Assembly (NCBI GenBank): GCA_036507075.1
Contig: DASXQR010000202.1
Span: 1-24,893 of the forward strand
Source of the DNA: Acidobacteriota bacterium
Lineage (GTDB): Bacteria; Acidobacteriota; UBA6911; JACQSX01
Direction: 5' to 3'
DNA: 24,893 nucleotides
Under the pieces are notes generated by a model, which worked only from the letters and a program-made list of their open reading frames with translations, did no database searches and was not told the DNA's origin. Shown here one piece after another: positions 1-24,893 of this stretch (position 1 is the stretch's first letter; each line of letters begins with the position of its first letter). Both the position numbers and the translations under genes were made by a program.

Positions 1-118
1 AAACTTGAAGGATGAAGTCATCAGAGCCGGGTCAGCCCGCCGGTGACGACCTCATCCTTCAAGTTTCGGCCCCGCCCTTTGCGCCTCCTCTTGGCGCTCT
101 TTGCGGTCTTGGCGGTGA
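1..118. repeat. Fold-back element A, truncated by the window edge: inner inverted repeat plus 9-mer arm
   Basis: Positions 1-23 pair with 44-66 (AAACTTGAAGGATGA / TCATCCTTCAAGTTT perfect for 15 bp, 21/23 overall). Then CTTTGCGCC..CTTGGCGCT CTTTGCGGT CTTGGCGGT at 77-116. Confidence 0.85.
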
Positions 119-175
119 GGATTTTTTGGAATGATCCGGCAAATCCCGAATTCTGACGCGAACATTCCTTTCTAT

Positions 176-2839
176 ATGGATCCCGACCAGATTCCAAAGA
201 CCTACGATGCCCGCGCGGCTGAACAGCGCTGGTATCCATTCTGGGAGGAAAACAGGTTCTTTGTAGCGGACCCGGATTCCGAGGCCGAGCCTTTCTGCAT
301 TGTGATGCCGCCGCCCAACATCACCGGCTCGCTGCATATGGGTCATGCTCTGACCAACAGCCTGCAAGACGTGATCATTCGCTGGAGGAGAATGCAGGGG
401 TTCAACACGCTCTGGCTCCCCGGGACTGACCACGCCGGCATTGGCACTCAGAATGTGATCGAACGGCAACTCGCCGAGAAGAATCTGCACCGCAAGGACA
501 TCGGGCGCGAGAAATTCGAGCAGATCACCTGGGAGTGGAAGCAAAGCGCCGAACAAACCATTCACTACCAGCTCCGCAAACTGGGCTATAGCTGCGACTG
601 GACCCGCGTGGCGTTCACCATGGAGCCGCGAATGTCACGGGCCGTGAATGAAGTATTCGTGAGGCTTTACGAAGACGGCCTGATCTATCGCGGTGAATAC
701 ATTGTGAACTGGTGCCCTCGATGCACCACCGCTGTTTCCGACCTGGAAGCGCAGCACCAGCCCGAACAGGGAAAGCTGTACTACATACGTTACCCGCTGG
801 AAGGCTCCGGCGAGAGCGTCACAGTGGCTACCACACGGCCTGAGACGATGCTGGGAGATACGGCGGTGGCAGTGCACCCTGAGGATGAACGCTATGCGCC
901 GCTGGTGGGAAAAATCATCCGGCTTCCCCTGCTCAGCCGGAAAATCCCCATCATTGCCGATACCCTCGTGCAGAGAGAATTCGGAACGGGGGCAGTGAAA
1001 ATTACTCCGGCCCACGACCCAAATGATTACCAGGCGGGCTTGCGCCATCAGTTGCCGCAGGTACAGGTTATCGGCGAGACCGGCACAATGACGGTCGCCG
1101 CCGGGCCGTATGCCGGATTGAGCAGGGAAGCGGCGCGCCGCCGTGTGCTGGAGGATTTGAGAGCTCAGGGATTCCTGGTCAGGGAGGAGGCGCACACGCT
1201 CAGCGTTGCTCACTGCCAACGCTGCAACACGGTGATCGAGCCGCTCGTTTCCACCCAGTGGTTTGTAAAGATCGCGCCGCTGGCGCAACCCGCCATTGAA
1301 GCGGTGGAGAGCGGTCATATTCGCTTCATCCCCGCAAATTACGAAAAGGTGTACTTCGAGTGGATGCGCAATATTCATGACTGGTGCATCTCACGCCAGT
1401 TATGGTGGGGACATCGCATTCCCGCCTGGTACTGTGAAGCCTGCGGCAGGATGCTGGTCACCCGCAATACCCCTGCCCGCTGCCCGCAGTGCGGCAATGA
1501 AAATCTGCTGCAGGATCCCGACGTGCTCGATACCTGGTTTAGTTCCGGGTTGTGGCCATTCTCGACTTTTGGATGGCCGGATCAAACAAGCGAGCTGGCT
1601 GTTTTTTATCCAAACAGCGTGATGATGACCGGGTTTGACATCATTTTCTTCTGGGTCGCCCGCATGATCATGATGGGGATCTACTGCATGAAGGAAGTCC
1701 CATTCCCGCTGGTATTCCTGAATGGCTTGGTGCGCAATGAGCAGAAACAGAAAATGAGCAAGAGCAAGGGCAACGCCGTCGACCCGCTTGAGATCATCGA
1801 TCAGTATGGCGCCGATGCGGTGCGATTCACGTTGGCTGTAATGTCAGGCGCCGGCACAGACATCGTCTTTTCCACGGATCGCATGATCGGCTATCGCGCG
1901 TTCGCCAACAAAATCTGGAACGCGGTGCGCTTCCTCCTGATCAATCTGCCCGATCAGACGCCGGCGGTTTCGCGCGAGGAGATCAAGCGCATGCTGGCGG
2001 CGTCGCCTGTCTCCATTGCCAATCTTTGGATTCTGCACCGGCTCAACAGCGCCGTCCGGCAGGTGAACGCCTATCTCGAAAAATTCCGTTTCGATGAAGC
2101 CGGCAACACACTGTATCACTTCTTCTGGCATGAGTTGTGCGACTGGTATCTGGAGCTGACCAAACCGGTGCTGGCGCAAAAGCAGGGGCCTGACTACCAC
2201 CAGACCGTCAAAGTGCTGGTTTATACGCTGGACAATTCATTGAGGGCGCTTCACCCGGTGATGCCTTTTATCACCGAAGATTTGTGGCAGAGACTTCCGC
2301 ATCAAGGGCAGTCCATTTGTATCGCCTCGTATCCGGCTGCCGATAAGGCTTTTGAAAATCAGAAAGCGGAGGAGGAGCTTAATGAGCTGATAGATTTTGT
2401 AACAGCGGTTCGCACCGTTCGCTCGGAAAATAACCTCGACCCGGCGCGGAAAATGGTGCTGGAACTGCTGGCCGGCAAGGAAAGTCGCCAGCGCCTCGAA
2501 TCGTATCGACCGGCCATTATGGCATTGGCGCGTCTAAACGAAATCCGAACCGTGGACGCGTTTGCCGAAAATGGAAACAGGTTGAAGGGTTTTTCCGAGA
2601 TCGGCCCGTTTGCGCTGCTGCTGGACAGCACCATCGATGTTAAGACGGAGGCCGAGAGGCTCAAAAAGGAGATTCAGAAACTGGAGGAGGAAATTGAGCG
2701 CCACTCCGCCAGGCTTTCCAATGAGGAATTCCTCAGGAAAGCTCCGCCCAAAGTGGTCGAAGGGGCGCGTGAAAAACAAAGCGAGCTTTCTGAAAAGCTG
2801 AAGAAGTTCACGGTGGAGCTGCGTCGGCTCGAACAATGA
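176..2839 (+). CDS. valS: Valyl-tRNA synthetase
   Basis: Class I aaRS motifs [13 protein letters not shown] and KMSKS, plus [21 protein letters not shown] and the C-terminal coiled coil ([13 protein letters not shown]). The ORF opens at 131; ATG 176 ([11 protein letters not shown]) matches the usual ValRS N-terminus, so the start is an inference. Confidence 0.97.
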
Positions 2840-2894
2840 TTCGCGCTTGCATCCAGTCCAAATTCGGCAATCTCAAGTTCGGAACTCTAAAGCC

Positions 2895-3740
2895 ATGGCC
2901 TCACTTCCTGCTAGCCCCCTGGTAAGGCAAATTGTTGAGGCTGCGCTTGCCGAGGACCTTGGCCGGGGAGACGTAACCACTACGGCCTTTGTTGATCCGG
3001 GGAAGCGAGCCGCCGGCGCATTTATCGCACAGCAGGCATTTATCTGGTGTGGAGGTCCGCTGCTGCCGATCATTTTTCAGATACAGGACCCATCCGTTTC
3101 GGTTTCCGTGTCAATGGCCGACGGTCAAGCCGTGCAGCCGGGCACGATTCTGGCCGAGGCGGAAGGCGCGGCCGGCTCTCTGCTGGCAGCCGAACGGGTA
3201 TCACTCAATTTCCTGCAGCGTCTTTCTGGAATCGCCACTACCACAAACCGGTTTGTGCAGGCGATCCGTGGAACTTCCTCGCGAATTCTGGACACCCGAA
3301 AGACGACTCCTGGCCTGCGCGTCCTGGAAAAATACGCGGTGCGCGTCGGCGGAGGGCAGAATCATCGCGCCGGCCTTGACGACGGGATTCTCGTGAAAGA
3401 GAACCATATCCAGGCGGCCGGGGGCCTGCCGCAGGTGATTCGAAGGCTGGGGAACATCAGCCGCGGACTGCTTCGGGTTGAAATTGAAGTGGAGAATCTC
3501 GACCAGTTGAAACAGTTGGTTGATCATCCTGTCGACGTGATCATGCTTGACAATATGAGTCCGGCGGACGTCGCCGAGGCTGTCCGAATCGCGGCCGGCC
3601 GTTTCAAGTTGGAGGCCTCGGGCGGCATTACCCTGGACAATGTTCTGGAGTATGCTGAAACAGGCGTCGATTACATTTCGGTGGGAGCTTTGACGCATTC
3701 CTGCCAGTCGGTCGACATATCCTTCCTATTGCGGAACTGA
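2895..3740 (+). CDS. nadC: Quinolinate phosphoribosyltransferase (nicotinate-nucleotide pyrophosphorylase)
   Basis: Motifs ALAEDLGRGDVTT, ERVSLNFLQRLSGIAT, DTRKTTPGLR, NHRAGLDD, IMLDNM, EASGGI and ISVGALTH. Start placed at ATG 2895 rather than TTG 2847. Confidence 0.96.
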   Translation: MASLPASPLVRQIVEAALAEDLGRGDVTTTAFVDPGKRAAGAFIAQQAFIWCGGPLLPIIFQIQDPSVSVSVSMADGQAVQPGTILAEAEGAAGSLLAAERVSLNFLQRLSGIATTTNRFVQAIRGTSSRILDTRKTTPGLRVLEKYAVRVGGGQNHRAGLDDGILVKENHIQAAGGLPQVIRRLGNISRGLLRVEIEVENLDQLKQLVDHPVDVIMLDNMSPADVAEAVRIAAGRFKLEASGGITLDNVLEYAETGVDYISVGALTHSCQSVDISFLLRN

Positions 3741-3742
3741 TC

Positions 3743-4528
3743 TTGCCGGAACGTTGCTCTCTTCCCGATCTGCCATATTCGATTCTGCATTTCCTTGAAA
3801 TTGACAGCACCAGTCAGTATCTTCGCGAGTGGGGAAGGCAATTCCCGGAAAACGGCCTGGTGGTCTGGGCCGATTACCAGACTGCAGGACGCGGCCGGAT
3901 GGGGAGAGTTTGGCACGCGGAACGAACAGAGGGCCTTTGCTTCTCAATGCTGATTTCGCCGGCACACCCGCGCAGTGTCATGCGCATTCCCCTGGCGGCC
4001 GCAGTGGTGCTGTACGATACGCTGGTGCAGCAGGAGGCCTCGCTGAAAGATTCTCTTGACCTGAAATGGCCCAATGACGTTTTGCTCGGGCACAAAAAGG
4101 TTGCCGGAATTCTGACAGAGCTCGACAACGGTGAAAACGGTTCGTTCGTTGTGCTCGGCGTCGGACTCAACTGCAATCAGGAACAATTCTCCCCCTCTCT
4201 GCCTGGCGCCACTTCCTTGCGCATTGAACTGGGACGCGCGGTGAAACGGGCGACGCTGCTGGAGCAGTTTCTGAGGAACTGGCACCAGTACTTTCAGAGT
4301 TTCTTTGACTGGCCGGCGGCAGGAGTGGAGGTAATCGCCGACTGGAAGACGCGCAGTCAATTCTGGAGGAACCAGCCGGTTCAATTCGTCATTGACAGCA
4401 AAAAGATGCAAGCAAGAACGCGCGATCTCGCTCCCTCGGGCGCCCTGGTGGTTCTGTTAGAATCTGGAGAGCAAAGAGAGATTATTTCCGGCGAGGTAGA
4501 GTGGATCCGTGTGAAAGACGGTCAGTAG
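3743..4528 (+). CDS. birA: Biotin--[acetyl-CoA carboxylase] ligase, monofunctional (no N-terminal HTH)
   Basis: Motifs QTAGRGRMGRVW, LKWPND, KKVAGIL and GVGLN. TTG start 2 nt after the nadC stop; the start is uncertain. Confidence 0.93.
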   Translation: MPERCSLPDLPYSILHFLEIDSTSQYLREWGRQFPENGLVVWADYQTAGRGRMGRVWHAERTEGLCFSMLISPAHPRSVMRIPLAAAVVLYDTLVQQEASLKDSLDLKWPNDVLLGHKKVAGILTELDNGENGSFVVLGVGLNCNQEQFSPSLPGATSLRIELGRAVKRATLLEQFLRNWHQYFQSFFDWPAAGVEVIADWKTRSQFWRNQPVQFVIDSKKMQARTRDLAPSGALVVLLESGEQREIISGEVEWIRVKDGQ

Positions 4529-4531
4529 ACT

Positions 4532-4641
4532 GTTGTCCGTGGTCCGTTGTTCGTTGTCAGTGGTCCGTGATAACAACTGACAACTGACACAACTGACAAC
4601 TGACAACTGACAACGAACCATTGACAACGGACAACTGACAA
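4532..4641. repeat. Fold-back element B: inverted heptamer arrays GTKGTCM / ACAACTG
   Basis: Five units GTTGTCC GTGGTCC GTTGTTC GTTGTCA GTGGTCC (4532-4566), a 6-nt gap, then about nine ACAACTG-like units (4573-4641). Confidence 0.92.
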
Positions 4642-4644
4642 AAG

Positions 4645-5583
4645 ATGAGTATTTTTAACTACAAGGAACAACCCGGCTATTTCAGCCGCCTGAAAGAAGC
4701 TATTCAGGTCACCAAAAAAGACTTCGTCGATAAGATCGACGACGCCCTGGGTCGCGAGAAAGAGATCGACGAAAACCTGCTCGACGATCTGGAAAGAATT
4801 CTCATTTCCACCGATGTGGGAGTCGACACGGCGGTCAAGACCATCGACAAAATTCGAGTGCTGGCCAGCAGCAAACAGTTGCGAAACATTCGCGAAGTGA
4901 AGCGGCTGATCAAGTCTGAACTGCTCGAGATCCTGAAAAAGGTCGATTCGGAGCCACCCTTGAATGGGGTGCCGATTCGCGTCGTGATGGTGATAGGCGT
5001 AAACGGCGTGGGCAAGACCACTACCATCGGTAAGCTGGCCCGGCTTTACAAGCAGCAGGGCAAAGAGGTCTTGATTTGCGCCGCCGACACTTTCCGGGCG
5101 GCGGCCGTAGAACAACTCGCCGTCTGGGCGGAGCGCAATCAGGTGGAAATGGTCAAGCAGAAAACCGGATCGGACCCATCGGCGGTTTTGTTCGACGCTA
5201 TTGCCGCTTCCAAGGCGCGCCGCAAGAGCGTCATCATCGTGGACACGGCCGGAAGACTCCACACCAAGAGCAACTTGATGCAGGAGCTGGAAAAGATGAA
5301 GCGCGTCGCGGGAAGGGAAGTCCCAGGTGCTCCCCACGATATTCTGCTGGTTCTTGACGCAACTACCGGTCAGAACGGTCTGGTACAGGCTCGCGAGTTT
5401 ACGCGTTCGGTGGGCGTTACCGGCTTGATTGTGACAAAGCTCGATGGCACGGCCAAGGGAGGGATTCTGATTGCGATCGCCAGGGAACTGGGCTTGCCTA
5501 TTTATTATATTGGCGTGGGCGAAGGGATCGAAGACCTGATGGTATTTTCGCCTGAGGCTTACGTGGAGGGACTTTTCGATTAG
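4645..5583 (+). CDS. ftsY: Signal recognition particle receptor FtsY (short NG form)
   Basis: Motifs GVNGVGKTTTIGKLA, DTFRAAAVEQL, DTAGRLH, LDATTGQN, TKLDGTAKGG and GVGEGIEDL. Confidence 0.97.
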   Translation: MSIFNYKEQPGYFSRLKEAIQVTKKDFVDKIDDALGREKEIDENLLDDLERILISTDVGVDTAVKTIDKIRVLASSKQLRNIREVKRLIKSELLEILKKVDSEPPLNGVPIRVVMVIGVNGVGKTTTIGKLARLYKQQGKEVLICAADTFRAAAVEQLAVWAERNQVEMVKQKTGSDPSAVLFDAIAASKARRKSVIIVDTAGRLHTKSNLMQELEKMKRVAGREVPGAPHDILLVLDATTGQNGLVQAREFTRSVGVTGLIVTKLDGTAKGGILIAIARELGLPIYYIGVGEGIEDLMVFSPEAYVEGLFD

Positions 5584-5857
5584 TCCGTGGTCAGTGGTCC
5601 GTTGTCCGTAGTCATTGTTGCGGGTTAGCGGGTTATCGAGTTACGGGTTAGTGGGTTATCGAGTTACGGGTTCCGAGTTTTAGAACTTAAGATTTAAAAA
5701 CTAGAAATTAATGGAAGCTGCCGCGCTCAATTTTCAAATTTTGAATTCTTCAATTCCACAATTCATTACAATTCATAACCGAAACCCGTAACCCGAAACC
5801 CCGAAACCCGTAACCCGTAAACCCGAAAACCCGAAAACGACAACTGACAACGGACAA
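5583..5857. repeat. Fold-back element C: three nested inverted repeat arrays
   Basis: Outer GTGGTCC-type 5583-5613 / GACAACT-type 5839-5857. Middle CGGGTTA-type 5621-5680 / AACCCG(T/A)-type 5777-5838. Inner AT-rich TTTAGAA-type ~5679-5709 / AATTTTC-type ~5729-5776. Confidence 0.9.
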
Positions 5858-5859
5858 AC

Positions 5860-7641
5860 ATGAAACTAAGCAACTACTCGCTGAACTACTCACGGTTGCT
5901 GGCGGCGCGGCAGATGGATATCTTCAGGTTTCTCGAAATCTGCCGGGAGCTGCAACTGGAAGGGGCCAGTCTCCATGTTCGCGACCTGGAAAGCACCCAG
6001 CCGGATTACTTGAAAAAAATCCGCCGGCATTTCCTTGACAATGGTCTTTCCCTTGCGTTGCTGACCGTCACAACGGATTTTGGCAAGGCGGACCACCAGC
6101 CGGAGTTCGAAAAGGCAGTGGAAGCTCTGCGCGTGGCAGCGTTTCTGGGTGCTCCTTTGCTGCGGGTTTTCGCAGGCTCGCCGGTTGCTGAAACGGAACG
6201 CTCGGCGACCTTCCAACGGGCTGCCGGCGGCCTCCGGAAAGTCTGCGAAGCCGCTGCAGAATGGGGGATTCCAGTCGGCCTGCAGAACCACAATCACGGC
6301 GCGCTCTGCAGGACGGGTGACGAAGTGATTCGTTTTATGCGGAACGTGAACCACGCGAACCTCACATTTGTACTCGACACCGGGCAATTTGCCGGGTCGC
6401 GGGGAGCCAGCGGCGCTGCACCTCCCGAGCTGCAGTCCGCTGATCCGATGGAAAGCATTCGCCAGACTGCGTCCCTGGCGCGCTACGTGCGGGCCAAGTT
6501 TTACAGCCCGGCGCGGGATGGATCCGAGCCTTCGATCGATTACCGCAAGGTAGTGGACATTATGGACGGCGTGCATTATCAGGGCTTCATTGACATCGTG
6601 TACGAGCCGCCGCAGGATGGCGAAGACTTGCGTTCCGCCCTGCCGCGCGTGGTCTCTTTTTTGCGCTCGGTGATCAATTCCGGGGCGCAATCGGGAAGTT
6701 CTCAGAGGAGGGACGCCCGTTATGGGAACCTTACGCCTGAGAAATACTTTGCAGCGGCAGAGGTTCGCGTTGAAAACCAGCTTGCTTTCCTTGAGGGCCC
6801 GGCAGTGGATCGCAAAGGAGCTGTTTTCTTCACCAACATTCCCGCCGAGCAGATCCTCAAGTGGGACCCCGATGCGAAGAAGTTGTCGGTCATCAGGGAG
6901 AAGAGCAATCAAGCCAACGGCCTGATGTTCGACAGGGAGGGCAGGTTGGTGGCTTGCGAGGGTGGAGGTCGCGTCACCCGAATGAACGTCGGGACCGGGA
7001 AGCTTGAGGTTCTAGCCGCCGGCTATCAAGGCAAACCGCTCGGCGCGCCCAATGATTTGACGGTGGATCAAAGGGGACGCATTTATTTCACCTCACGTCT
7101 GGCCAATCGTGATCCGCAATCAGGCAACGTGAACGCGGTGTATCGGATTGATCCCGACGGCACGACCCACCGAATCCTGGCCTGGCCCGACATTGACATG
7201 CCCAACGGCATTGACACATCCCCCGATGACAAACGGTTATACCTGATTGATGCAGATTCCGGCGAAAACCGGGCCCGCAGGATCCGAGTTTATGACCTGC
7301 AACCGGACGGCACCGCCACCAACGGCAGATTGTTGTATGACTTTTACCCTGGCCGCAGTGGAGACGGAATGGCCGTCGATCAGGAGGGTAATCTGTACAT
7401 CGCGGCAGGCTTGCATCGGCGGCGCGCGACCAGCGAGACTCTCCATACGCGTCCTGGCATTCACGTGATCACACCCACGGGAAACCTGGCTGCTTTTGTG
7501 GAAACGCCCGAAGATACCATTACCAACTGCGCGTTTGGCGGGCCGGATTGGCGGACGCTCTACATCACGTGCGGCAAACTTCTGCTAAGCATTCGCACCC
7601 AGATCCCGGGCAAGGCATCTTACCGGCCGGAGAGGGGCTAA
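5860..7641 (+). CDS. Fusion protein: N-terminal sugar-phosphate isomerase/epimerase (xylose-isomerase-like TIM barrel) plus C-terminal SMP-30/gluconolactonase beta-propeller
   Basis: Residues ~1-275 carry LGAPLLRVFAG, GLQNH, LDTGQF and YQGFIDIVYE. A Ser/Gly linker (SGAQSGSSQ) follows. Residues ~305-585 carry EGP, ANGLMFDREGRL, PNDLTVDQRGRIYFT, PNGI, DGMAVDQEGNLY and TNCAFGGPDWRTLYIT. Confidence 0.85.
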   Translation: MKLSNYSLNYSRLLAARQMDIFRFLEICRELQLEGASLHVRDLESTQPDYLKKIRRHFLDNGLSLALLTVTTDFGKADHQPEFEKAVEALRVAAFLGAPLLRVFAGSPVAETERSATFQRAAGGLRKVCEAAAEWGIPVGLQNHNHGALCRTGDEVIRFMRNVNHANLTFVLDTGQFAGSRGASGAAPPELQSADPMESIRQTASLARYVRAKFYSPARDGSEPSIDYRKVVDIMDGVHYQGFIDIVYEPPQDGEDLRSALPRVVSFLRSVINSGAQSGSSQRRDARYGNLTPEKYFAAAEVRVENQLAFLEGPAVDRKGAVFFTNIPAEQILKWDPDAKKLSVIREKSNQANGLMFDREGRLVACEGGGRVTRMNVGTGKLEVLAAGYQGKPLGAPNDLTVDQRGRIYFTSRLANRDPQSGNVNAVYRIDPDGTTHRILAWPDIDMPNGIDTSPDDKRLYLIDADSGENRARRIRVYDLQPDGTATNGRLLYDFYPGRSGDGMAVDQEGNLYIAAGLHRRRATSETLHTRPGIHVITPTGNLAAFVETPEDTITNCAFGGPDWRTLYITCGKLLLSIRTQIPGKASYRPERG

Positions 7642-7753
7642 TGCGGAATGCGGAATGTGGAATGCGGAATGCGGAATATATCCAACTTGAGTCTTTCTTA
7701 GCCGAGATTAAAATCGCTCCTAATTCCGCATTCCGCATTCCGAAATCCGCATT
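7640..7753. repeat. Fold-back element D: AATGCGG x5 / ATTCCGC x4, between convergent genes
   Basis: Left arm 7640-7677, right arm 7723-7753. A second copy lies at 16113-16213. Confidence 0.93.
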
Positions 7754-7764
7754 CGGAACTCATG

Positions 7765-8871: not shown

Positions 8872-8972
8872 GACATTTCTATTGTAAACCACCGAAGGTG
8901 TTCACCGTCGCTTTTGCAGGCGGTACATGGATAGACAACAGAGGCTGGCGGCGCGTTCCAGACATTTTCTTG

Positions 8973-9129: not shown

Positions 9130-9141
9130 TCCTGAGATTTC

Positions 9142-9564: not shown

Positions 9565-9615
9565 CGGTTTTCTTTCCTTCCCTTGAAGAATAACCAATCT
9601 GATGCGGGAACCGCA

Positions 9616-16064: not shown

Positions 16065-16112
16065 AGTGTCGAAACGATACTACAGAAGGCGCTTGCGGGG
16101 CTAGTGGTGACC

Positions 16113-16213
16113 GAATGTGGACTGCGGAATGCGGAATATATCCAAACTAGATTTTCGTATATGAGACCAAATCGTTCTTCCTATTCCGTATTCCGCATTC
16201 CGAAATCCGCATT
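16113..16213. repeat. Fold-back element H: second copy of the AATGCGG/ATTCCGC element
   Basis: Aligned ungapped to 7653-7753, the first 33 nt match 32/33 and the last 31 nt match 30/31. Confidence 0.93.
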
Positions 16214-16255
16214 TTGATGAAATGGCTGCAGCTGACCCGGGCGCAGTAGTGTCAC

Positions 16256-17374
16256 CTATTTCGCGTAATAGCCTCTTTTGGTGCGGATCCGGTATTGCTG
16301 GTTGGGTTGGAGATTTGACAGTTGCACGCGGATTTCCCTCCACTTGCCGTCGCGCACCAGATTGGCCGAGACGTAGGCAATTCGATACTGGTTGCGCAGC
16401 TCATTGGCGATGCTGGTGAAGACGCCGGCAAGGTCTTCCAGACGATTCGGGTAATAAACTTTCCCTCCGGTTGCTTCGGCTATTTCAGACATTTTCTTCT
16501 CGAGTTTTTCCTTCTCCGATTTCTTGATCCCGAAGAATCCGCCTTCGCGCCCGATGTCCTCGTCTATGAAAACGATCATGTAAACCTGCACGTCGCTGTC
16601 ACGGATCTTTGCCAGCAGCTCGTCAAGTTTGTAATAGCTGTCCTGATCTTCGCCGTCGGTAAATACGAGCACGACTTTCTTCGGTTCGGAGCCCTCACTC
16701 GCTTTTTCGACTCCCAGGTAAATCGCGTCATAGAGAGAAGTTCCGCCAGACACGATCATGTTGTCCAGGGCGTCCCGGATGTCGTCAAAATCCCGGGTCA
16801 GGTCTTCGACCAACTCCACATCCTGGGAGAATTCGATCAGAAAGAACTCATTTTCCGGGTTGGCCTTGTCCACGAATTGCTTGGCCGCCCGTGTCACCAG
16901 TTCCGCCTTTCGCTTCATGCTGCCGCTCTTGTCTATAACCAGGCCGAGTGTGGCCGGGAGATCGACCTGACCGAAATTGGTGATCGTCTGCAGAACCTTG
17001 TCTTCGTACACCTGAAAGTTTTCCTTCTGCAGGCCCGGAACCAGGCTCCCATTTTTGTCATGAGCCGTCACATGAATGACAACCTGGTTGACATCGACGC
17101 CGATGCGAAATCCGCCTTTCTTCTTATCATCCTGGCTCTTTTCGCTCGCCTGTGCCGACTCTGATTTTTCCAGTTGAGGCTTATCCTGCTTCTTTCGATT
17201 CTCCTTCTCCTGCGGCGTGGCATAAGCAAGGGGGGAGCAGAGCGTCAGCAGCAGCGCCGAAACCAGCGCGAGTCTGCGGTCGAAAATCCCCGAAATCGGG
17301 AAAGCGCGAAGGTGCGCCGGCATGCGCAGCGCGTCGTTTGCGGACTCGGAACCTTTGGATCGGAATTTCTTCAT
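16256..17374 (-). CDS. Secreted VWA-domain protein (acidobacterial VWFA type)
   Basis: MIDAS residues DKSGSM...GTSLYDA...TDGED, plus DVNQVVIHVTA, ELRNQYRIAY and DGKWREIRV. N-terminal hydrophobic stretch. Start uncertain. Confidence 0.88.
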   Translation of the reverse strand: MKKFRSKGSESANDALRMPAHLRAFPISGIFDRRLALVSALLLTLCSPLAYATPQEKENRKKQDKPQLEKSESAQASEKSQDDKKKGGFRIGVDVNQVVIHVTAHDKNGSLVPGLQKENFQVYEDKVLQTITNFGQVDLPATLGLVIDKSGSMKRKAELVTRAAKQFVDKANPENEFFLIEFSQDVELVEDLTRDFDDIRDALDNMIVSGGTSLYDAIYLGVEKASEGSEPKKVVLVFTDGEDQDSYYKLDELLAKIRDSDVQVYMIVFIDEDIGREGGFFGIKKSEKEKLEKKMSEIAEATGGKVYYPNRLEDLAGVFTSIANELRNQYRIAYVSANLVRDGKWREIRVQLSNLQPNQQYRIRTKRGYYAK

Positions 17375-17445
17375 TTCAAAAACTCAATTTCCAGCCCGTT
17401 AACGTATCTACTTTACCACCGGGACGTGAAAGAGTGGAAACCTGG

Positions 17446-17605
17446 CATTAGTCATTGGTCATCGTTGGTCATTAGTCATCAGTCATTGGTCATGCAGTAA
17501 TGAAGTTCAGGAGCTTGGTGCCTCGGTGGTAAAGAAATTGGAACCGCCAAGACACCAAGCCAATGATTATGATTAATGACCAATGACGAATGACCAATGA
17601 CTAAT
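17446..17605. repeat. Fold-back element I: CATTGGT/AATGACC heptamer arms enclosing a G-type hairpin
   Basis: Outer arms 17446-17493 and 17562-17605. Inner GCTTGGTGCCTCGGTGGT (17513-17530) pairs with ACCGCCAAGACACCAAGC (17543-17560), 15/18. Confidence 0.9.
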
Positions 17606-17668
17606 CACGCTGGAGTGTCCGCTTGCTTACGTGCGCGGTTCGGTGCCTGGTGGATATTGGGAAGACGG

Positions 17669-18619
17669 CTAGCGTTTTGGGGCGAAGTAGCCTTCTTTGG
17701 CGCGAATGCTCAACTTGGGCAGCCCTTCGGGGGGCTCCAATCGAACTTTTACCTTGCGCCACTTGCCGTCATGGGTCGCGTTGCTTGGAGTGTAGCCGAG
17801 CACGTACTGATTTCGCAGCTCGGTATGGATCAAATCGCAATAATAATCGAGCGACTTGAGGTTGTTGGGAAAAAAGGCCCGCCCTCCGGTGAGACTTACG
17901 ATTTCGCTGATGATTGACCGTCCATAGCCTTGGTCGCCCTTTTCACCGATGACGTAAATCTGAGCATCGGATTCCTTGGCAAAAGATTTAACATCGGAAA
18001 ACGTATAGCGGCTGCTGTTGTCCTCGCCGTCGGTGATTACAACCAGCGCTTTCTTGTCATTGTGCGCCTCGGTGAGCTTTTGCAATCCGGCGTAAATGGC
18101 ATCGTAGAGAGCGGTTCGTCCTTTGGCCCTCATCAGAGAAATCTGATTGCGGATGTTCTCGCCTTTGTTCGTGAAGTCCTGCGCCAGAGCCGCACGCTCA
18201 TTGAAGGCCACAAGGAAATACTCATCCTGCTGGGTGCCCTGCTCCAGAAATCGCAAAATCGAATTCTTGGCAGCCACCATGTTGTCAGACATGCTGCCGC
18301 TGATGTCCAGGATCACGCCTACGCTCAGCGGGGAGTTGTCATTGGAAAAATGCGTGATGGACTGCTCTACTTTGTTGTCGAAGACTTTGAAATGCTCTCT
18401 TTCCAGGCCTACCACATAGCGGTTGAGCGGGTCGGTCACCGCCGCACGAATCACCACCAGATCGACATTGGACCGAAATATAGAAGGGCGCTGCGCGACC
18501 TTCCCATCCGTAAGTTTGTTCTGACTGTTTATAAGCTCGGAGCTGAAGACCGTTGTGATCAGGAAAAGGAGAGAACCAACACACAGACCGCTTAGGGATG
18601 CAGCCCTGATCCTGGTCAT
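17669..18619 (-). CDS. Secreted VWA-domain protein (paralog of the downstream gene)
   Basis: MIDAS residues DISGSM...GRTALYDA...TDGEDN, plus ELRNQYVLGY and DGKWRKVKV. Strong SD AAGGAG 5 nt before ATG 18619, followed by a signal-like stretch. Confidence 0.9.
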   Translation of the reverse strand: MTRIRAASLSGLCVGSLLFLITTVFSSELINSQNKLTDGKVAQRPSIFRSNVDLVVIRAAVTDPLNRYVVGLEREHFKVFDNKVEQSITHFSNDNSPLSVGVILDISGSMSDNMVAAKNSILRFLEQGTQQDEYFLVAFNERAALAQDFTNKGENIRNQISLMRAKGRTALYDAIYAGLQKLTEAHNDKKALVVITDGEDNSSRYTFSDVKSFAKESDAQIYVIGEKGDQGYGRSIISEIVSLTGGRAFFPNNLKSLDYYCDLIHTELRNQYVLGYTPSNATHDGKWRKVKVRLEPPEGLPKLSIRAKEGYFAPKR

Positions 18620-18673
18620 ACCTACTCCTTTCCTAGAAGCGCCGGTTGGGTTCGGCCGGTACACATTAGGATA

Positions 18674-18703
18674 ATTGTAGGTAGGGAGGGTAAGGGAAGT
18701 CAA
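18674..18703 (-). promoter_or_regulatory. Sigma70-type promoter for the upstream VWA gene
   Basis: Minus strand TTGACT (18703-18698), 18 nt spacer, TACAAT (18679-18674), about 55 nt upstream of ATG 18619. Confidence 0.6.
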
Positions 18704-18713
18704 TCAAACGAAC

Positions 18714-18852
18714 CAGCGGCCGATTTTCGCGAATTGACACGGATAGAAACAGGCCGCTGATTTACGCAAATTACGCCGATATTCTTCCGACTTCCAGACT
18801 TTCGACTTTCGACCTTCGATTTTCGACTTGGGATTTTCGACTTTCAGACTTT
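18714..18852. repeat. Repeat cluster J: degenerate 25-nt duplication plus an unpaired CTTTCGA heptamer array
   Basis: CGATTTTCGCGAATTGACACGGATA (18721-18745) resembles TGATTTACGCAAATTACGCCGATA (18758-18781). About nine CTTTCGA-like units lie at 18784-18852, just downstream of the ftsK stop. Confidence 0.8.
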
Positions 18853-18861
18853 TGCCGGCGG

Positions 18862-21195
18862 TTACAGCCGTTCATCCATTTCGCGGAAGTATTCCGGGCT
18901 TTTCAGCACTTCGCGGGGCTTGCTGCCGTCGGCGGGTCCCACGATGCCTTCTCTTTCCATCATGTCGATCAGCCGGGCCGCCCTGCCATAGCCGATCCGA
19001 AAGCGACGCTGCAGCGCCGAAGTTGAGGCCTTGCCGATCTCAACAACAAAGCGCGCAGATTCCTGGTACAGCTCGTCGTCCCAGTCGTCGTCCAGTGGCT
19101 CTTCGGCAGGTAAAATACCGGGATCATCCAGGATCTCTTCGTTATAGCTGGGATCAGCTTGTTTCTTGAGAAACGTGACCATGCTGTGAATTTCCTTTTC
19201 ACTGACATAGGCGCCGTGGATGCGGATCAGGCGCGAAGTTCCGGGCGGCAGGAACAGCATGTCTCCCAGACCGAGCAGTTGTTCGGCGCCGTTGGTATCC
19301 AGGATCGTCCTGCTGTCGATTTTCGAGGAGACGCGGAACGATATCCGGCTGGGGAAATTGGCTTTGATCAGCCCTGTAATCACGTCGACGCTGGGTCGCT
19401 GGGTGGCGAGAATCAGGTGAATTCCCACGGCTCGGGCCATCTGGGCCAGCCGCGTGATCGATTCCTCAACTTCCTTGGCTGCAATCATCATCAAGTCGGC
19501 CAGTTCATCGATGATCACCACGATGTAGGACATCCACTCGTGCTGGCTTTCCTGATCCGCTTCGAAAGCGCCTGATTCCACCATTCCGTTGTATTGATCA
19601 ATGTTCCGCACGCCCAGGCTGGCCAGTTTCTTGTAGCGGTTTTCCATTTCCGTGACCGCCCAGTTAAGCGCGTTTGCGGCCCGTTTGGGATCCGTCACGA
19701 TGGGCGTGAGCAGGTGGGGAATTCCTTCGTACACGCCCAGCTCCAGGCGCTTGGGATCGATCATGATGAACTTGACCTGTTGCGGGTTTGCCTTGTAAAG
19801 CATGGAGCAAACCATCGAATTTAGCGCCACGCTCTTGCCCGATCCCGTCGCTCCCGCTATCAGCAGATGCGGCATCTTTTTTAGATCGCTTACATAGGTC
19901 TCGCCATGGATCAGTTTCCCCAGAGCGAGAGTAAGCAGTGACTTCGATCGCGAAAAGGCGTCCGAGCTTATGATTTCGCGCAAAAAGATAGACTCGCGCT
20001 TCAAATTAGGAACCTCGATTCCCACGGTATGCTTGCCCGGAATGCGGTCAATTCGGATCGATTCTGCGCGCATGGCAAGGCACAAATCATCCACCAGGTT
20101 GGTCAGCCTGCTGTACTTGACGCCCGCTTCCGGTTTGAATTCATAGGTGGTAACCACCGGCCCGGGATGGATCTGCTCGACTCCTCCCAACACATCAAAT
20201 TCATGACACTTTCGCGTCAGTTGATCGGCCCTTTCCAGCAACTCCGCTTCCTCAATGGAATTGTGTTCGGAAGGAGGCCGTAGAAATTCCACGCTGGGGA
20301 GACGGAAGTCCTCGGTCTTCTTTTCCGGCCGTAACACCCGCTCCGGCTTTCCGGGCTCGGCAACTCGCGCGTTGATAACGGGCGCTACGAGTTCGGCTGC
20401 GGAGAGAACACTCGCCGGGCTCGCCTGGGTTTCCCTGGCTGCTTGTCTTTCCATTGCGGGGGTGCTGTAGACAGAAGGAGAAGGCGGAACAGGTCTCTCC
20501 GACCTCTCGACGTCCCGCTGTCTCTCCGGCGCAATTTCAGCCGCAACCCTGGGTTTACCCCGCGCATTGTCGGGACTGTTTTGAAACTCACGGGCTGGCC
20601 GGTAGTCCTTGCGTCGGAAGATTCTCAGCGAGGGGAAGGGAAGGCGCGGGAGCCGGATGGTTTCAATTTTATCCAGGCACTCCGCCAGCGAAACCGAAGT
20701 GCTCAGAAGCAGGCTCAAGACTAATGCGGTACAGAACAGAATGATGCTGCCCGTTACGTTCCAGTAGCGGACCATTTGATGCTTCACAAAGACACCCAGG
20801 GTTCCGCCGGGAGGAAAATTTGCAATCGAGATCCAGCGCGGCGAATAAAGCTCCAGAATGGCGGCGACACTCACCACCAGCCCGGCCAGGCCGATGGCCC
20901 GCGAGTACGGGGCGTCTGCCGGGCGTGAGCGAATTCTCTTGTAGCCGATCACAAGTAATGCCGGCGGAATCACAAACGCCGCGTATCCAAGAATCTGGAA
21001 CAGCAAGTCTGCGCACATTGCCCCCAGCTTGCCGGCCGAATTCTGGTAGCTTTCGTGAGTCGCGGTCACACTGGCGGAGGGATCGTAAGCATCGTAGCTG
21101 ACCAGGCAAACGAAAACCAAAAGCGAGGCGGACCATGCCAGGATTCCCAGCATTTCGTTCAGGCGGCTGTTCTTCCAGGTTTGCGCTTCACGCAT
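18862..21195 (-). CDS. ftsK: DNA translocase FtsK/SpoIIIE
   Basis: N-terminal 4-TM domain, GPVVTTYE, PHLLIAGATGSGKS, IDELADLMM, LATQRPSVDVITG and gamma domain LQRRFRIGYGRAARLID. Confidence 0.97.
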   Translation of the reverse strand: MREAQTWKNSRLNEMLGILAWSASLLVFVCLVSYDAYDPSASVTATHESYQNSAGKLGAMCADLLFQILGYAAFVIPPALLVIGYKRIRSRPADAPYSRAIGLAGLVVSVAAILELYSPRWISIANFPPGGTLGVFVKHQMVRYWNVTGSIILFCTALVLSLLLSTSVSLAECLDKIETIRLPRLPFPSLRIFRRKDYRPAREFQNSPDNARGKPRVAAEIAPERQRDVERSERPVPPSPSVYSTPAMERQAARETQASPASVLSAAELVAPVINARVAEPGKPERVLRPEKKTEDFRLPSVEFLRPPSEHNSIEEAELLERADQLTRKCHEFDVLGGVEQIHPGPVVTTYEFKPEAGVKYSRLTNLVDDLCLAMRAESIRIDRIPGKHTVGIEVPNLKRESIFLREIISSDAFSRSKSLLTLALGKLIHGETYVSDLKKMPHLLIAGATGSGKSVALNSMVCSMLYKANPQQVKFIMIDPKRLELGVYEGIPHLLTPIVTDPKRAANALNWAVTEMENRYKKLASLGVRNIDQYNGMVESGAFEADQESQHEWMSYIVVIIDELADLMMIAAKEVEESITRLAQMARAVGIHLILATQRPSVDVITGLIKANFPSRISFRVSSKIDSRTILDTNGAEQLLGLGDMLFLPPGTSRLIRIHGAYVSEKEIHSMVTFLKKQADPSYNEEILDDPGILPAEEPLDDDWDDELYQESARFVVEIGKASTSALQRRFRIGYGRAARLIDMMEREGIVGPADGSKPREVLKSPEYFREMDERL

Positions 21196-22864: not shown

Positions 22865-22909
22865 TCTATTCGATACGAGTGCTCCCGCCGGATGTAATCT
22901 GCCACTGGG

Positions 22910-22938
22910 ATTATAAAGTGACTGCTTCTAAATGTCGA
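22910..22938 (-). promoter_or_regulatory. Sigma70-type promoter for rnj-ftsK
   Basis: Minus strand TCGACA (22938-22933), 17 nt spacer, TATAAT (22915-22910), about 45 nt upstream of the rnj start. Confidence 0.7.
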
Positions 22939-22967
22939 GAGTCCAGAGATTTAGGAAACGGGTTCAC

Positions 22968-23258
22968 GTCAGTTGTCCGTGGTCCGTTGTCGGAAGGCGG
23001 AAAGCGGAAAGCGGAAGGCGGAAAGCGGAAGGCGGAAGGCGGAAGGCGGAAAGCGGAAGGCGGAAGGCGGAAGGCCGAAAGCGGAAGGCGGAAGGCGGAA
23101 GGAACCGGAAAGCGCGAAAGGTGGGCCAAGTCGGCGGGCCGCTCACTCCGTTCGCGCTCGGATGGCGTACAATACGACCACTCTCTATCCTCTGCTTCCT
23201 CCTTCCTGCTTCCTGCTGCCTGCTTCCTGCTTTCCGCCTTCTGCCTTCCGACAACTGA
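22968..23258. repeat. Fold-back element K: CGGAARG x16 / CTGCTTC-CCGCCTT x8 nested inside GTTGTCC/GACAACT arms
   Basis: Outer arms 22968-22991 and 23250-23258. Inner arrays 22991-23102 and 23192-23250. Confidence 0.93.
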
Positions 23259-23269
23259 GCACGAACGAT

Positions 23270-24055
23270 TCACTTGGCAATCAGCCTTGCCAAAGCCAGG
23301 TATTTTTCGACGGGTATTTCCTCCGGCCTTGCGCCGGGCGGAATTCCTGCGGCAGACAGCAGGGACGGGTCAAAGCGGCTGGCCTTGAGGTTGTTTTGAA
23401 TGGTCTTGCGGCGATGTGTGAAGCTGGCGCTCAGCAGGCTCTTTGTCAGTTCCCAAAGTTCTCGTTCAAGCAGCAGGTCCCGGCGGGGTGTCAGTCGCAG
23501 CACCATGGAATCGACTTTCGGTTTGGGGAAGAAAGCGGCCCGGGAAACCTGAAAACCCTTTTCAATGCGAAACGCCAGCGAGCAGAGGCATGAAAGATAA
23601 CCATAATCCTTCGACCCGGGAACGGCCCAGATCCTGTGGGCCACTTCCCTTTGGACCATGAAGATCAGCTCCGAGATCAAAGGCTTCCATTCAGGTTCGG
23701 CGAATTTCTGGATCAGGTGGGTGGCAACATTATAGGGCAGATTGCCGAAGAACTTTCTGGGGTGCTCGCCGGGCAAATTCGAAGGTTCCAGAGTGCGCGC
23801 ATCGGCCAGCCACAGGCGTGCGGCGGGATGCGTCTTGAACAATACGGCCAGCGGCCCCCGCGCCAGTTCCGGATCAATCTCAACAGCGATCAATTCCTGG
23901 CTGATCTCCAGCAGACGCGCGGTAAGGGCGCCGTCGCCCGGGCCAATTTCAACGAGAGGTTCGCCTGGCCGAACGTGACCAAATTGAATGATCTTGCTTA
24001 TCGTACCGGGGCTTCTGAGGAAACTCTGACCGAGTGATTTCTTCGGGTGAGTCAT
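23270..24055 (-). CDS. rsmA: 16S rRNA adenine dimethyltransferase KsgA/RsmA
   Basis: Motifs KKSLGQSFL, EIGPGDGALT, VEID, GNLPYNV, MVQREVA, FFPKPKVDS and FTHRRKTIQNNL. Confidence 0.95.
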   Translation of the reverse strand: MTHPKKSLGQSFLRSPGTISKIIQFGHVRPGEPLVEIGPGDGALTARLLEISQELIAVEIDPELARGPLAVLFKTHPAARLWLADARTLEPSNLPGEHPRKFFGNLPYNVATHLIQKFAEPEWKPLISELIFMVQREVAHRIWAVPGSKDYGYLSCLCSLAFRIEKGFQVSRAAFFPKPKVDSMVLRLTPRRDLLLERELWELTKSLLSASFTHRRKTIQNNLKASRFDPSLLSAAGIPPGARPEEIPVEKYLALARLIAK

Positions 24056-24144
24056 TTTGGATTTTTTATGCTAGCATGAGATGTTTGTCTTATACGGTAA
24101 TGCTCGTCAGAGAGGCCGAGTTTTTGAAACAGAGGAGAACTTAA

Positions 24145-24483
24145 ATGAGTGGCAAGGTCTTGGACGTAACGGACACCAGCTTTGAACAGGAAGTATTGAA
24201 GGCGGACAAGCCTGTCTTGGTGGATTTCTGGGCATCCTGGTGCGCGCCTTGTCGCATGCTGGCTCCTGCCGTCGAGGCGATCGCCGACCAGTACGATGGC
24301 CGCGCCAAAATTGCGAAGTTGAACGTTGACGAGAACAGCGCCACGTCCGCCCGGTACAACATTAAAGGCATTCCAACGCTGCTTCTCTTTAAAGATGGCG
24401 TCATCAAAGAACAGATCGTGGGCGCCACCTCGAAGGAAAACATCGCCAAAATGATCGAAATGCACCTTTCTGGCGGCAGGTAA
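24145..24483 (+). CDS. trxA: Thioredoxin
   Basis: VLVDFWASWCAPCRM and IPTLLLFKDG. SD AGGAG upstream of the ATG. Confidence 0.96.
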   Translation: MSGKVLDVTDTSFEQEVLKADKPVLVDFWASWCAPCRMLAPAVEAIADQYDGRAKIAKLNVDENSATSARYNIKGIPTLLLFKDGVIKEQIVGATSKENIAKMIEMHLSGGR

Positions 24484-24549
24484 ACTCGATCGAGTCAGAT
24501 CCGGGGCATTCGAATTTCATCCCGAGGGGCTACGAGCCTGAAAAAATCC

Positions 24550-24575
24550 ACCACAAAGGCACGGAGGACACAGGG
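24550..24575 (+). repeat. Single ACCACAAAG-type arm
   Basis: ACCACAAAG GCACGGAG GACACAGGG has the same pattern as the left arm of element E. The partner is absent or decayed (CTCTCTGTAC nearby). Confidence 0.6.
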
Positions 24576-24657
24576 GAGCTAAAAGTCTCTCTGTACTACT
24601 AGTAATGCAAATTTTCGCGGCACGGGACAATTCTAGTCATAAAAGACCAACAAAAAC

Positions 24658-24893
24658 CGTCCACGTGCACGAGCACGAGCACGCCAACGTCCACATTCAC
24701 GTTTCTGACGGACGAGGTCTCAGTGTCGCTAGTTTCTGACTCACCGGCGTCGTGCAATCGGATCGGTTTTGAACGTGGAAGAAGGATGGGAGATGGTGGA
24801 ACACGGCGTTCCACGGCGACCGAATCTGAATACGTTGGACGTCAGGCGTAATCGTAGTCGTGCCCGTTGACGTGCTCGTGCTCGTGGACGTAG
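24658..24893. repeat. Fold-back element L: CACGAG / CTCGTG hexamer arms around a ~140-nt spacer, truncated by the window edge
   Basis: CGTCCACGTGCACGAGCACGAGCACGCCAACG from 24658 pairs with CGTTGACGTGCTCGTGCTCGTGGACG (24865-24890). Confidence 0.88.

Follow-up and report, generated by a model that had tools for sequence, protein, structure and literature searches.

We analyzed an entire contig (C202) of 24,893 bases, called the window below, from a soil Acidobacteriota metagenome-assembled genome (MAG; 6.12 Mb, 233 contigs, 56% G+C, 95.7% complete), together with the tandem-repeat arrays that occupy its intergenic gaps. The window carries 18 ordinary genes, including valS, nadC, birA, ftsY, a TIM-barrel/SGL fusion gene, alaS, a pilT-like gene, ftsK, rnj and ksgA, and the records nearest to its FtsY are from Acidobacteriota MAG, with 78-82% protein identity. 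Most of the arrays, with units of 6-9 nucleotides (nt), face their own reverse complement across a spacer as fold-back pairs. We found that such pairs form dispersed families with conserved arms and fixed polarity, and that the same or near-identical arms bracket two kinds of gene elsewhere in this genome and in related genera: a four-helix-bundle gene (PF05635, the protein of 23S rRNA intervening sequences, bAvd-like), here termed 4HB, and a nuclease gene (PF13366), here termed PDDEXK_3.

Tandem-repeat arrays in the gaps of the window

Arrays were identified with Tandem Repeats Finder (TRF), using a period of 6-9 and a score of at least 30 as the threshold in the window, and fold-backs with an inverted-repeat finder; fold strength is given as z relative to dinucleotide shuffles. 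Genomes are labeled G000 (the genome studied) and G001-G004 (relatives), contigs by C and cargo loci in relatives by L, each with a number. By an open reading frame (ORF) listing combined with TRF, an array of period 6-9 was present in all 12 non-coding stretches longer than 100 bp (89-116, 4535-4641, 5583-5857, 7640-7758, 9095-9119, 9644-9668, 13403-13467, 16113-16213, 17446-17605, 18784-18852, 22991-23249 and 24662-24886), and a fold-back pair was present in 10 of the 12 gaps. Both the ubiquity of arrays and their predominantly paired arrangement had been claimed in an earlier reading of the sequence, referred to below as the original prediction. The following elements were delimited.

1-66 (contig start): unique hairpin, not a tandem array; 31-nt arms, 4-nt loop, 84% complementary, z -9.7
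89-116: solitary 9-mer array of TCTTGGCGG (3.1 copies), CGCCAAGAA-type, a PDDEXK_3-class unit; z +1.0, no fold
4521-4644: fold-back of the heptamer class between the birA stop and the ftsY start; GTTGTCC/GTCCGTG (5 copies) facing ACAACTG (9.6 copies), 79%, z -5.9
5583-5857: nested fold-back beginning at the ftsY stop codon; outer arms GTCCGTG (5583-5613) and GACAACG (5839-5857), inner arms GCGGGTTA (5617-5672) and CCGAAAC (5779-5836) with inner unit CGGGTTA, AT-rich centre with TCAATTCT-like units; z -7.9
7640-7758: AATGCGG-family fold-back in the convergent gap that follows the 5860-7641 gene, from its stop codon on; 45-nt spacer, 86-91% arms, z -6.6
8973-9129: long hairpin with a PDDEXK_3-class unit; outer 8/9-mer arms ACCACAAAG ... 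CTTTGTG, 90%, and an inner unique 28-nt stem (9007-9034 / 9067-9094, 96%); z -17
9632-9804: 9-mer class, weak pairing; CGCCAAGAA (2.8 copies) facing TTCTTGGCG, 113 nt apart, 77%, z -3.0
13311-13367: 8-mer fold-back TGGTGCCC / CACCAAGA immediately upstream of the likely true alaS start; 25-nt arms, 7-nt loop, 96%, z -8.7
13403-13467: solitary 8-mer array of TCCCACTC (8.4 copies); z -0.5
16113-16213: second AATGCGG-family fold-back; 45-nt spacer resembling 7678-7722, z -5.0
17446-17605: heptamer-class fold-back; GTCATTG/CATTAGT (6.4 copies) facing AATGACC (4.4 copies), 76 nt between, z -10.8
18784-18852: solitary heptamer array of CTTTCGA (9.6 copies), about 10 nt past the ftsK stop codon; z -0.8
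22991-23250: heptamer-class fold-back; CGGAAGG (16 copies) facing CTTCCTC/CTGCTTC (7.7 copies), about 90 nt between, 70%, z -7.0
24663-24891 (contig end): hexamer arrays CACGAG / CGTGCT; 52-nt arms 125 nt apart, 75%, z -3.1

The paired elements folded with z values of -3 to -17, whereas the three solitary arrays (89-116, 13403-13467 and 18784-18852) gave values of about 0. The hairpin at 1-66 resembles a repetitive extragenic palindromic (REP) element, and its arm has a single copy in the genome. Coding sequence in the window yielded only four weak TRF rows (at 1473, 4873, 8807 and 19389; 2.0-2.3 copies, score 30-42). This is the chance level, as a Markov-3 coding control with 955 rows in 5.33 Mb leads to an expectation of about four in the window. 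Further rows at 13312-13368 fall within an over-extended alaS ORF. The longest alaS ORF (TTG at 13367; region 13290-13367) crosses the hairpin with 25-nt arms. Its Pfam match does not begin until residue 31, and the alignment to relatives starts at residue 24-27, which places the true alaS start probably downstream of the hairpin. Two ORFs of 120-169 amino acids (aa), at 22879-23388 on the plus strand and 22911-23273 on the minus strand, cross the CGGAAGG/CTTCCTC arrays and are almost certainly repeat artefacts. The arrays can in this way create spurious ORFs (22879-23388) and shift start calls upstream (alaS), and they also disrupt short-read assemblies. No transposase was found among the 18 window ORFs scanned against Pfam, and no Rfam match, rRNA included, reached the gathering score in the window.

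The TIM-barrel/SMP-30 fusion gene at 5860-7641 has a fold-back on each side. In two relatives (G001 and G003) the syntenic ftsY-DUF6599 interval lacks this gene, which in G001 is on C396, and the arrays therefore lie at a synteny break.

Within the region covered (4300-6056), the arrays are supported by contigs of sequencing runs. Contigs from the probable source run, X1, match 4300-6056 with 0 differences, and contigs from an independent soil run, X2, cover 4300-4659, 4630-5263 and 5234-5838 with 0, 0 and 1 differences, respectively. Since one 4408-nt X1 contig and the three X2 contigs run through both arrays (4521-4644 and 5583-5838) and differ at no more than one position, these two are not assembly artefacts. 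Short-read contigs ended at most other repeats examined, and only small repeat pieces matched in an RNA run (X5; share 0.07). In run X3, from a related strain population, we observed one extra AACCCGA unit at 5789 (depth 2 of 7.4) and, on another contig, a 1-nt deletion at 5818 (depth about 2), which hint at slippage polymorphism.

Repeat families across the genome and its relatives

TRF reported 2618 arrays of period 6-10 and score at least 36 in G000, 1906 of them in the 13% of the DNA that is non-coding; simulated non-coding DNA gave 111 rows in 0.78 Mb, whereas 2326 arrays of period 6-10 were counted for the real non-coding DNA in that comparison. Period 7 accounted for 1348 arrays (939 non-coding). 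Neighbouring arrays within 400 nt of each other (955 pairs) were inverted in 620 cases and direct in 13, with 3.7% of random array pairs expected to match in each sense, so the original claim that one fold-back architecture recurs over many units beyond chance was borne out. Likewise, among 996 strong non-coding arrays, 806 had an inverted partner within 400 nt, 19 a direct partner and 171 none, 35 of the latter lying at contig ends. The inverted pairs were mostly of period 7 (312), followed by 8 (158), 9 (118), 10 (23) and 6 (9), and their density of about 101 per Mb makes this genome an extreme case. For 136 solitary arrays a partner was sought 0.4-6 kb away; 19 had an inverted one, 21 a direct one and 96 none. 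Because far partners are inverted no more often than direct, there is no sign of an autonomous parent with array ends.

With 73 repeat-produced ORFs taken out of the genome-wide ORF map, strong arrays were internal to ORFs of at least 200 aa in 22 of 881 cases. The earlier statement that none was seen inside a coding sequence therefore largely holds for strong arrays, the rows in the coding sequence of the window being at chance level. By gap length, the share with an array was 388 of 958 (100-200 nt), 544 of 1067 (200-400 nt) and 187 of 360 (400-800 nt); the gaps of the window are more array-dense than those of the genome. By gap type, they occupied 279 of 530 convergent, 659 of 1343 tandem and 210 of 563 divergent gaps, and 249 of 643 array edges fell within 10 nt on either side of a stop codon. 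Inverted arrays of a single family, solitary but for this pairing, were also seen around a few ordinary genes (C23:13968-14836, a SpoU methylase gene; C23:8072-10668, an ORF of 816 aa; and C42:5498-6653, one of 349 aa), with array scores of 22-43.5. The loop may at times take in whole genes.

Every unit proved to be a dispersed, genome-wide family with a conserved arm sequence. In the 29 families with at least five pairs, the same arm came first in 98% of pairs. This polarity is independent of strand and therefore suggests descent from a common source or a mechanism that is fixed. The largest family, AATGCGG, has 336 arrays and 131 pairs, with the same polarity in all 131; AACGCCAAG has 35 pairs, AAATTCGTG 25, AGGGATGG 23, AAGACACG 20 and GTCCGTT 19. 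The shared AATGCGG arm reads GCGGATT-TCGGAAT-GCGGAAT-GCGGAAT and is mirrored in the second arm. The two 28-nt arms together gave 49 matches across unlinked loci, in both orientations in the genome (26 versus 23), with an arm identity between copies of 0.88-0.89. The spacer is 40-48 nt long in 73 of the 131 copies, and sub-families of near-identical spacers occur on unlinked contigs; in the AAGACACG/AAAGACAC families the spacers measure 79-85 nt in 20 pairs. Pairs of one family are often nested in the loop of another, and at least eight unrelated unit super-families coexist in the genome. The original prediction had taken the architecture rather than the sequence to be what is conserved, and the fixed polarity and arm identity within families contradict this.

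Filling of the gaps differs between genera. We compared the AATGCGG word (at most one mismatch) in five genomes of one taxonomic family (f1, G000 included) and 36 others of the class; it matched 702 times in G000, 100, 53, 24 and 2 times in the other four family genomes and at most once in each of the 36. The relatives, which belong to other genera with about 70-74% DNA identity in genes, preserve synteny with the window in three genera while the gaps differ. Between birA and ftsY, G000 has 116 nt that include a hairpin and G001 has about 10 nt; conversely, nadC and valS are 7 nt apart in G000 and about 270 nt apart in G001, with nested arrays of other units, and in G003 valS is preceded by an AGAGGTT/CTCTAAC pair. 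Empty and filled orthologous gaps, which had been proposed as a check, thus do exist. Together with the extra unit in X3, these differences suggest that elements come and go between genera and that unit number drifts.

Genes bracketed by the arrays and a shared promoter-like motif

The genome has nine PF05635 matches at seven loci, and all seven loci lie between arrays. The inverted arms are clean at C199, C37, C73 and C231, the layout is arm-gene-arm-loop-arm at C88 and C225, and C17 is a chimeric fragment. The family differs from locus to locus: AGGAGGC, GTCCGTT, GTCATTG, CACGTC, CGGGTTA and GAGAGTGG. As a background, 43 of 4467 ORFs had inverted same-family flanks and 39 had direct ones. 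Other small ORFs were considered as further cargo and set aside, since 11 of them with inverted same-family flanks encoded housekeeping proteins (Sdh cytochrome, QueF, sigma factor, DUF72, SpoU, RluA-like, COX2) or matched no family, which we read as chance bracketing. In 21 genomes of relatives, arrays were located within 400 nt of 40 of 40 PF05635 genes, with inverted flanks at 32 of 40. A period-7 row was found at each of the first 20 loci sampled, and the best period at the second 20 was 7 in 15, 8 in two, 6 in one and 12 in two.

Many of the window's units recur as 4HB arms. The arms of 4521-4644 also bracket the 4HB gene at C88, the inner unit of 5583-5857 equals the arms at C73, TCCCACTC (13403-13467) makes up the arms at C231, and the unit of 17446-17605 also brackets the gene at C225. 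CTTTCGA is the arm unit of the 4HB cassettes L195 and L201 (in G001 and G003), and CGGAAGG forms the arms of 4HB genes L130, L204 and L132 in G004, G003 and G001. Hexamer arms of the ACGTCC/ACGTGC type bracket 4HB genes at C37, L199 and L205, those at L199 and L205 being close to the CACGAG of the contig end. Among other units listed in the original prediction, CATTGGT is close to the GGTCATC arms of L203, and the GGATTGC arms of L200 and L213 are one base off AATGCGG. For most of these units the same or near-identical arms thus surround a cargo gene in family f1 or in G000 itself; the match of the TTTAGAA-like centre to cargo arms is only tentative.

The second cargo gene, PDDEXK_3, was first met when tracing the promoter-like motif described below. 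PF13366 has six loci in G000, of which C83 (CGCCAAGAA), C152 (CACAAAGA) and C140 (9-mers of AATTCGTG) have 8/9-mer arms. In relatives, arrays were present at 17 of 27 loci, with a best period of 8 (10 loci) or 9 (seven) and 7 in none. Repeat period therefore splits by cargo within one lineage, 6-8 with 4HB and 8/9 with PDDEXK_3. Units of the CGCCAAGAA/ACCRCNAAG type occur in the window at 89-116, 8973-9129 and 9632-9804. The unit of 89-116 belongs to the family AAGACCGCC/AACGCCAAG, that of 9632-9804 is also found upstream of the PDDEXK_3 gene at C83, and the CACAAAGA arms flanking the gene at C152 may be compared with the hairpin at 8973-9129. Judged by their units, the window's heptamer hairpins match the class of elements that carries 4HB, and its ACCRCNAAG/CGCCAAGAA hairpins match the PDDEXK_3 class. 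In two relatives (G001:C383:8760-10006 and G003:C73:3253-4430), a fragment of a PDDEXK_3 gene follows dprA immediately, in the same orientation.

Upstream of 4HB and RAYT genes (RAYT and Y1_Tnp both denote PF01797 matches here) we noticed a motif consisting of an A-tract, TTTCGCAGATTT, about 13 nt and gcCGGTTATGT (CGGTTATGT). The exact form TCGCAGA-N13-18-GTTATGT has 15 sites in G000 versus 0 in every one of three controls (reversed or swapped), and 34 sites versus 6, 5 and 11 with at most one mismatch; the genome-wide scan placed no site in the window. The motif precedes recA (C111:347-1438), ssb (C208:30377-30835), radC, dprA (C110:8723-9820), recG, an ERCC4-HhH nuclease gene and PDDEXK_3, as well as genes for a ComM-like Mg-chelatase ATPase (C23:18312-19514), a ComEA-like HHH_3 protein and a GspH/N-methyl pilin-like protein. 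It is also upstream of five of the seven 4HB loci, at least six of the 12 Y1_Tnp genes and some ten ORFs that match no family. In relatives, in the form TCGCAAA ... GTTATGT, it was found upstream of six of 14 recA/dprA/radC loci, all six in family f1, and in G001 and G003 it also precedes genes for 4HB and PDDEXK_3. From the company it keeps, the motif is a candidate promoter of a DNA-uptake and recombination regulon, possibly read by an alternative sigma factor. One cluster behind the motif (C28:572-2389) comprises two 131-aa paralogues without a Pfam family, the ERCC4-HhH nuclease gene and 21-nt repeats.

Interpretation and comparison with known systems

The repeats of the window thus form families with fixed polarity and conserved arms, some of which bracket cargo genes; their period splits by cargo, their filling is genus-specific, and they are excluded from genes and placed after stop codons. 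Given these observations, we lean, by a modest degree, toward reading the window's fold-backs as gene-less members of hairpin-repeat families, likely non-autonomous shells that represent two selfish cassette classes and are copied as DNA. One class likely has mostly heptamer arms (period 6-8) and a 4HB gene when complete; in the other, 8/9-mer arms likely go with a PDDEXK_3 nuclease gene. Whole hairpins would be copied and pasted as DNA, probably by way of single strands that fold back on themselves; we predict that the cargo proteins recognize the phased repeats and act in trans, and slippage would later change arm length. Expression of the cargo would coincide with DNA uptake and recombination, because its motif is common to dprA, comM, radC, ssb, recA and the RAYT genes. 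RNA processing may still account for the tolerance of insertions: cutting of the stems by RNase III, as in rRNA intervening sequences (PMC4990558), may make insertions within operons harmless.

Several observations weigh against the reading as gene-less cassette shells. In a tblastn search with four 4HB proteins, matches were confined to the seven known loci, with no remnants in other spacers, so derivation by gene deletion is argued from the shared arms alone. No cargo gene with AATGCGG arms was found in G000, and the nearest case is in G001, a 4HB gene with GGATTGC arms; a family can therefore be large and well conserved with no cognate protein resident in the genome. The 49 canonical AATGCGG copies lack a target-site duplication, and the inverted repeat grades outward into degenerate units with no sharp end. 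AATGCGG spacers are 0.57 identical versus 0.50 in shuffles and so scarcely exceed chance, which leaves room for an independent origin of many loci. At PF13366 genes of relatives, inverted flanks were present at only 12 of 27 loci and arrays were absent from 10 of 27. Among relatives of other genera and in contig-level reads, we saw no transposition event, excision junction or within-species empty allele; joints in run contigs derive from other family copies rather than empty alleles, and none was clean. The genome-wide gene maps are our own crude longest-ORF calls. Finally, among the five genomes of the family, the larger ones have higher counts of PF05635, PF01797 and the AATGCGG word alike, and these counts therefore single out no partner. 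The mechanism acting in trans that the original prediction invoked is accordingly upheld only in part: the tie of units to two cargo genes makes a partner plausible, but family counts do not say which.

A more far-reaching proposal, which we put forward tentatively and with more doubt than confidence, is that two unrecognized families of mobile hairpin elements exist, for which the 7-mer arrays and the 8/9-mer arrays would serve as recognition code. On folded single-stranded DNA, the phased heptamers would be bound by a pentameric 4HB protein and the phased 8/9-mers by a PD-(D/E)XK nuclease. Both would be induced with the uptake and recombination regulon, so that the elements would copy themselves into new gaps at times when DNA being taken up or recombined is in single-stranded form, and would pass between cells by natural transformation. 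To our knowledge, dispersed heptamer repeats have had no mechanism since their description around 1990, 23S rRNA intervening sequences carry an orphan four-helix-bundle ORF for which we know of no function, and the same is the case for the PF05635 and PF13366 families in general. If true, this recognition code would account for the long-noted heptamer excess of bacteria, for where rRNA intervening sequences came from and for what two large orphan protein families do. Testable claims follow from the split of period by cargo and from the shared motif: that the proteins recognize the repeats, that they act on hairpins of single-stranded DNA and that their expression is timed with uptake. In a literature search that covered mostly open-access journals, the supplements of PMC2700814 aside, no paper was found that ties PF05635 or PF13366 generally to inverted tandem-repeat arms; only fragments were found in print, namely paired regulator sites in Geobacter, heptamers in the Coxiella intervening sequence (IVS) and TAACTGA repeats.

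We also considered that the host might select the hairpins as RNA elements that end or stabilize the upstream message or provide RNase III sites, like REP elements, bacterial interspersed mosaic elements (BIMEs) or 23S intervening sequences. The strong folding, the array edges at or beside stop codons and the somewhat lower frequency in divergent gaps are in keeping with this, as is the cutting by RNase III of 23S intervening-sequence stems, the heptamer-bearing Coxiella stem included (PMC4990558). However, in 210 pairs from co-directional gaps, G:U (241) and A:C (249) mismatches on the sense strand were equally frequent (p = 0.75), and the pairing is therefore not kept at the RNA level. Moreover, more than one third of divergent gaps also have arrays, and orthologous gaps differ in presence and unit between genera. 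Intrinsic terminators (GC-rich stem plus T-run) were rejected as a candidate function, as none of 18 terminator-like sites in 1-19999 (23.8 in shuffles) coincided with a fold-back. The strong selection for long RNA hairpins suggested in the original prediction did not survive these comparisons, and we regard an RNA function as unlikely. Protein-binding sites, either for a nucleoid or global regulatory protein or as DNA-uptake signals for competence, seem markedly less probable again. Uptake sequences of Neisseria and Haemophilus are often inverted pairs located after genes, phased tandem repeats are typical of protein-binding arrays, and the cargo motif is shared with dprA, comM, ComEA-like and pilin-like genes. 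In Geobacter metallireducens, 24, 21 and 8 pairs are read as protein-binding sites (PMC2700814). Yet at least eight unit super-families are too many for one regulator or uptake receptor, the arrays lie after stop codons rather than at promoters, and units and positions differ between genera.

Two further explanations concern how the pairs arise, and we consider each of them improbable, to about the same degree. REPINs in the strict sense would be moved by RAYT (Y1 HUH) transposases of G000. The original prediction noted that no transposase is encoded here, which is correct for the window; the genome, however, has 12 Y1_Tnp matches, diverse and mostly single-copy like RAYTs, which share the promoter-like motif with the cargo genes. 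G001 and G003, both rich in arrays, have high Y1_Tnp counts (29 and 13), whereas those of G002 and G004 are low (2 and 3), and the doublet-hairpin logic is that of REPINs (PMC3116915). Nevertheless, Y1_Tnp counts follow genome size too, five of eight compared loci have inverted repeats of their own on both sides, GC-rich and palindromic, in place of arrays, the RAYT arms counted have only 1-19 copies, and array arms are not palindromic REPs. We therefore dropped RAYT as the main partner after inspecting the flanks of the 12 matches. The RAYT at C85:28500-29700, with GC-rich palindromic flanks, shows the layout arm, RAYT unit, arm, loop, arm, as seen for 4HB at C88 and C225; the unit sits inside one AATGCGG-type arm and looks like a nested insertion. 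The other explanation, growth in situ, requires no movement: local slippage would be followed by quasi-palindrome (template-switch) correction that copies one arm. This fits the variation from 4 to at least 16 units between copies, the extra unit at 5789 in the X3 population, the grading of adjacent units into each other within an array, the dissimilar spacers and the missing target duplications. Slippage, though, accounts for length drift and not for origin. The same arm with the same order of variant units recurs at dozens of unlinked loci (the 49 matches), random origin would yield both polarities, spacer lengths peak at 40-48 nt with near-identical spacers across contigs, and the same units surround cargo genes in other genera. 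An artefact of assembly, to which the breaking of short-read contigs at most repeats might point, can practically be dismissed given the X1 and X2 contigs that cross two arrays and the same architecture at cargo genes in 21 other genomes.

Among known systems, the Foldback (FB) transposons of Drosophila come to mind, which have long inverted terminal repeats made of short tandem repeats and a variable loop, most copies being gene-less; they are eukaryotic and kilobase-sized, and nothing points to homology. Miniature inverted-repeat transposable elements (MITEs) are generally regarded as deletion derivatives of gene-bearing elements and, like the elements here, are small, non-coding and multi-copy with inverted ends. 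Unlike MITEs, the 49 AATGCGG copies have neither a target-site duplication nor sharp ends, and no transposase-bearing parent with the same ends emerged from the search for far partners (19 inverted versus 21 direct). The short tandemly repeated repetitive (STRR) heptamers of cyanobacteria, reportedly described by Mazel and colleagues in 1990, are likewise tandem heptanucleotide arrays dispersed in intergenic DNA, and GTCATTG is a rotation of the STRR unit TTGGTCA.

Direct repeats of TAACTGA are described in Beggiatoaceae, Cyanobacteria and Bacteroidetes (MacGregor 2015, PMC4679880). The (C)AACTGA units here are one base off and end just before start codons (4641/ATG 4645; 5857/ATG 5860); the TAACTGA repeats differ in forming 169 direct sets versus one inverted, with 2-6 copies, and are read there as translational regulator sites. 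A further comparison is with the intergenic opposite-strand pairs of Geobacter metallireducens, composed of 3-5 tandem octa-, nona- or heptanucleotides at variable distance (2009; PMC2700814). Like ours, they are inverted tandem arrays of several classes in one genome. The classes, of 24, 21 and 8 pairs, are unique to one species of the genus, with insertion sequences at a fixed distance from some pairs; unlike ours, they are interpreted as IHF/HU or regulator sites, are not linked in that paper's text to a cargo gene and are about tenfold fewer.

The 23S rRNA IVS with its S23p ORF likewise has a PF05635-type ORF in the loop of a long inverted-repeat stem (PMC4990558). This layout was found for the gene-bearing members only (7/7 in G000, 32/40 in relatives), the window elements having no ORF. 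In Coxiella burnetii, according to PMC4990558, the IVS stem contains tandem GACAGAT heptamers that vary in number between strains and is cut by RNase III, and an origin from a mobile element has long been suspected. In contrast to the IVS, for which RNase III cutting is known, the elements here lie between protein genes instead of in helix 9, 25 or 45 of 23S rRNA, are mostly ORF-less and have long arrays as arms and hundreds of copies. The REPIN/RAYT system (Bertels and Rainey 2011, PMC3116915) has the following in common with them: short, gene-less, extragenic inverted doublets around a spacer, with predicted hairpins and several families per genome; over-representation of doublets, arms better conserved than spacers and no target duplication; and a single-copy protein gene bracketed by the same repeats. 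It differs in its arm, a short imperfect palindrome in REP and a series of non-palindromic 6-9-nt tandem units here, and in the bracketed genes, which here are PF05635 and PF13366, the RAYTs of G000 having their own GC-rich REP-like flanks.

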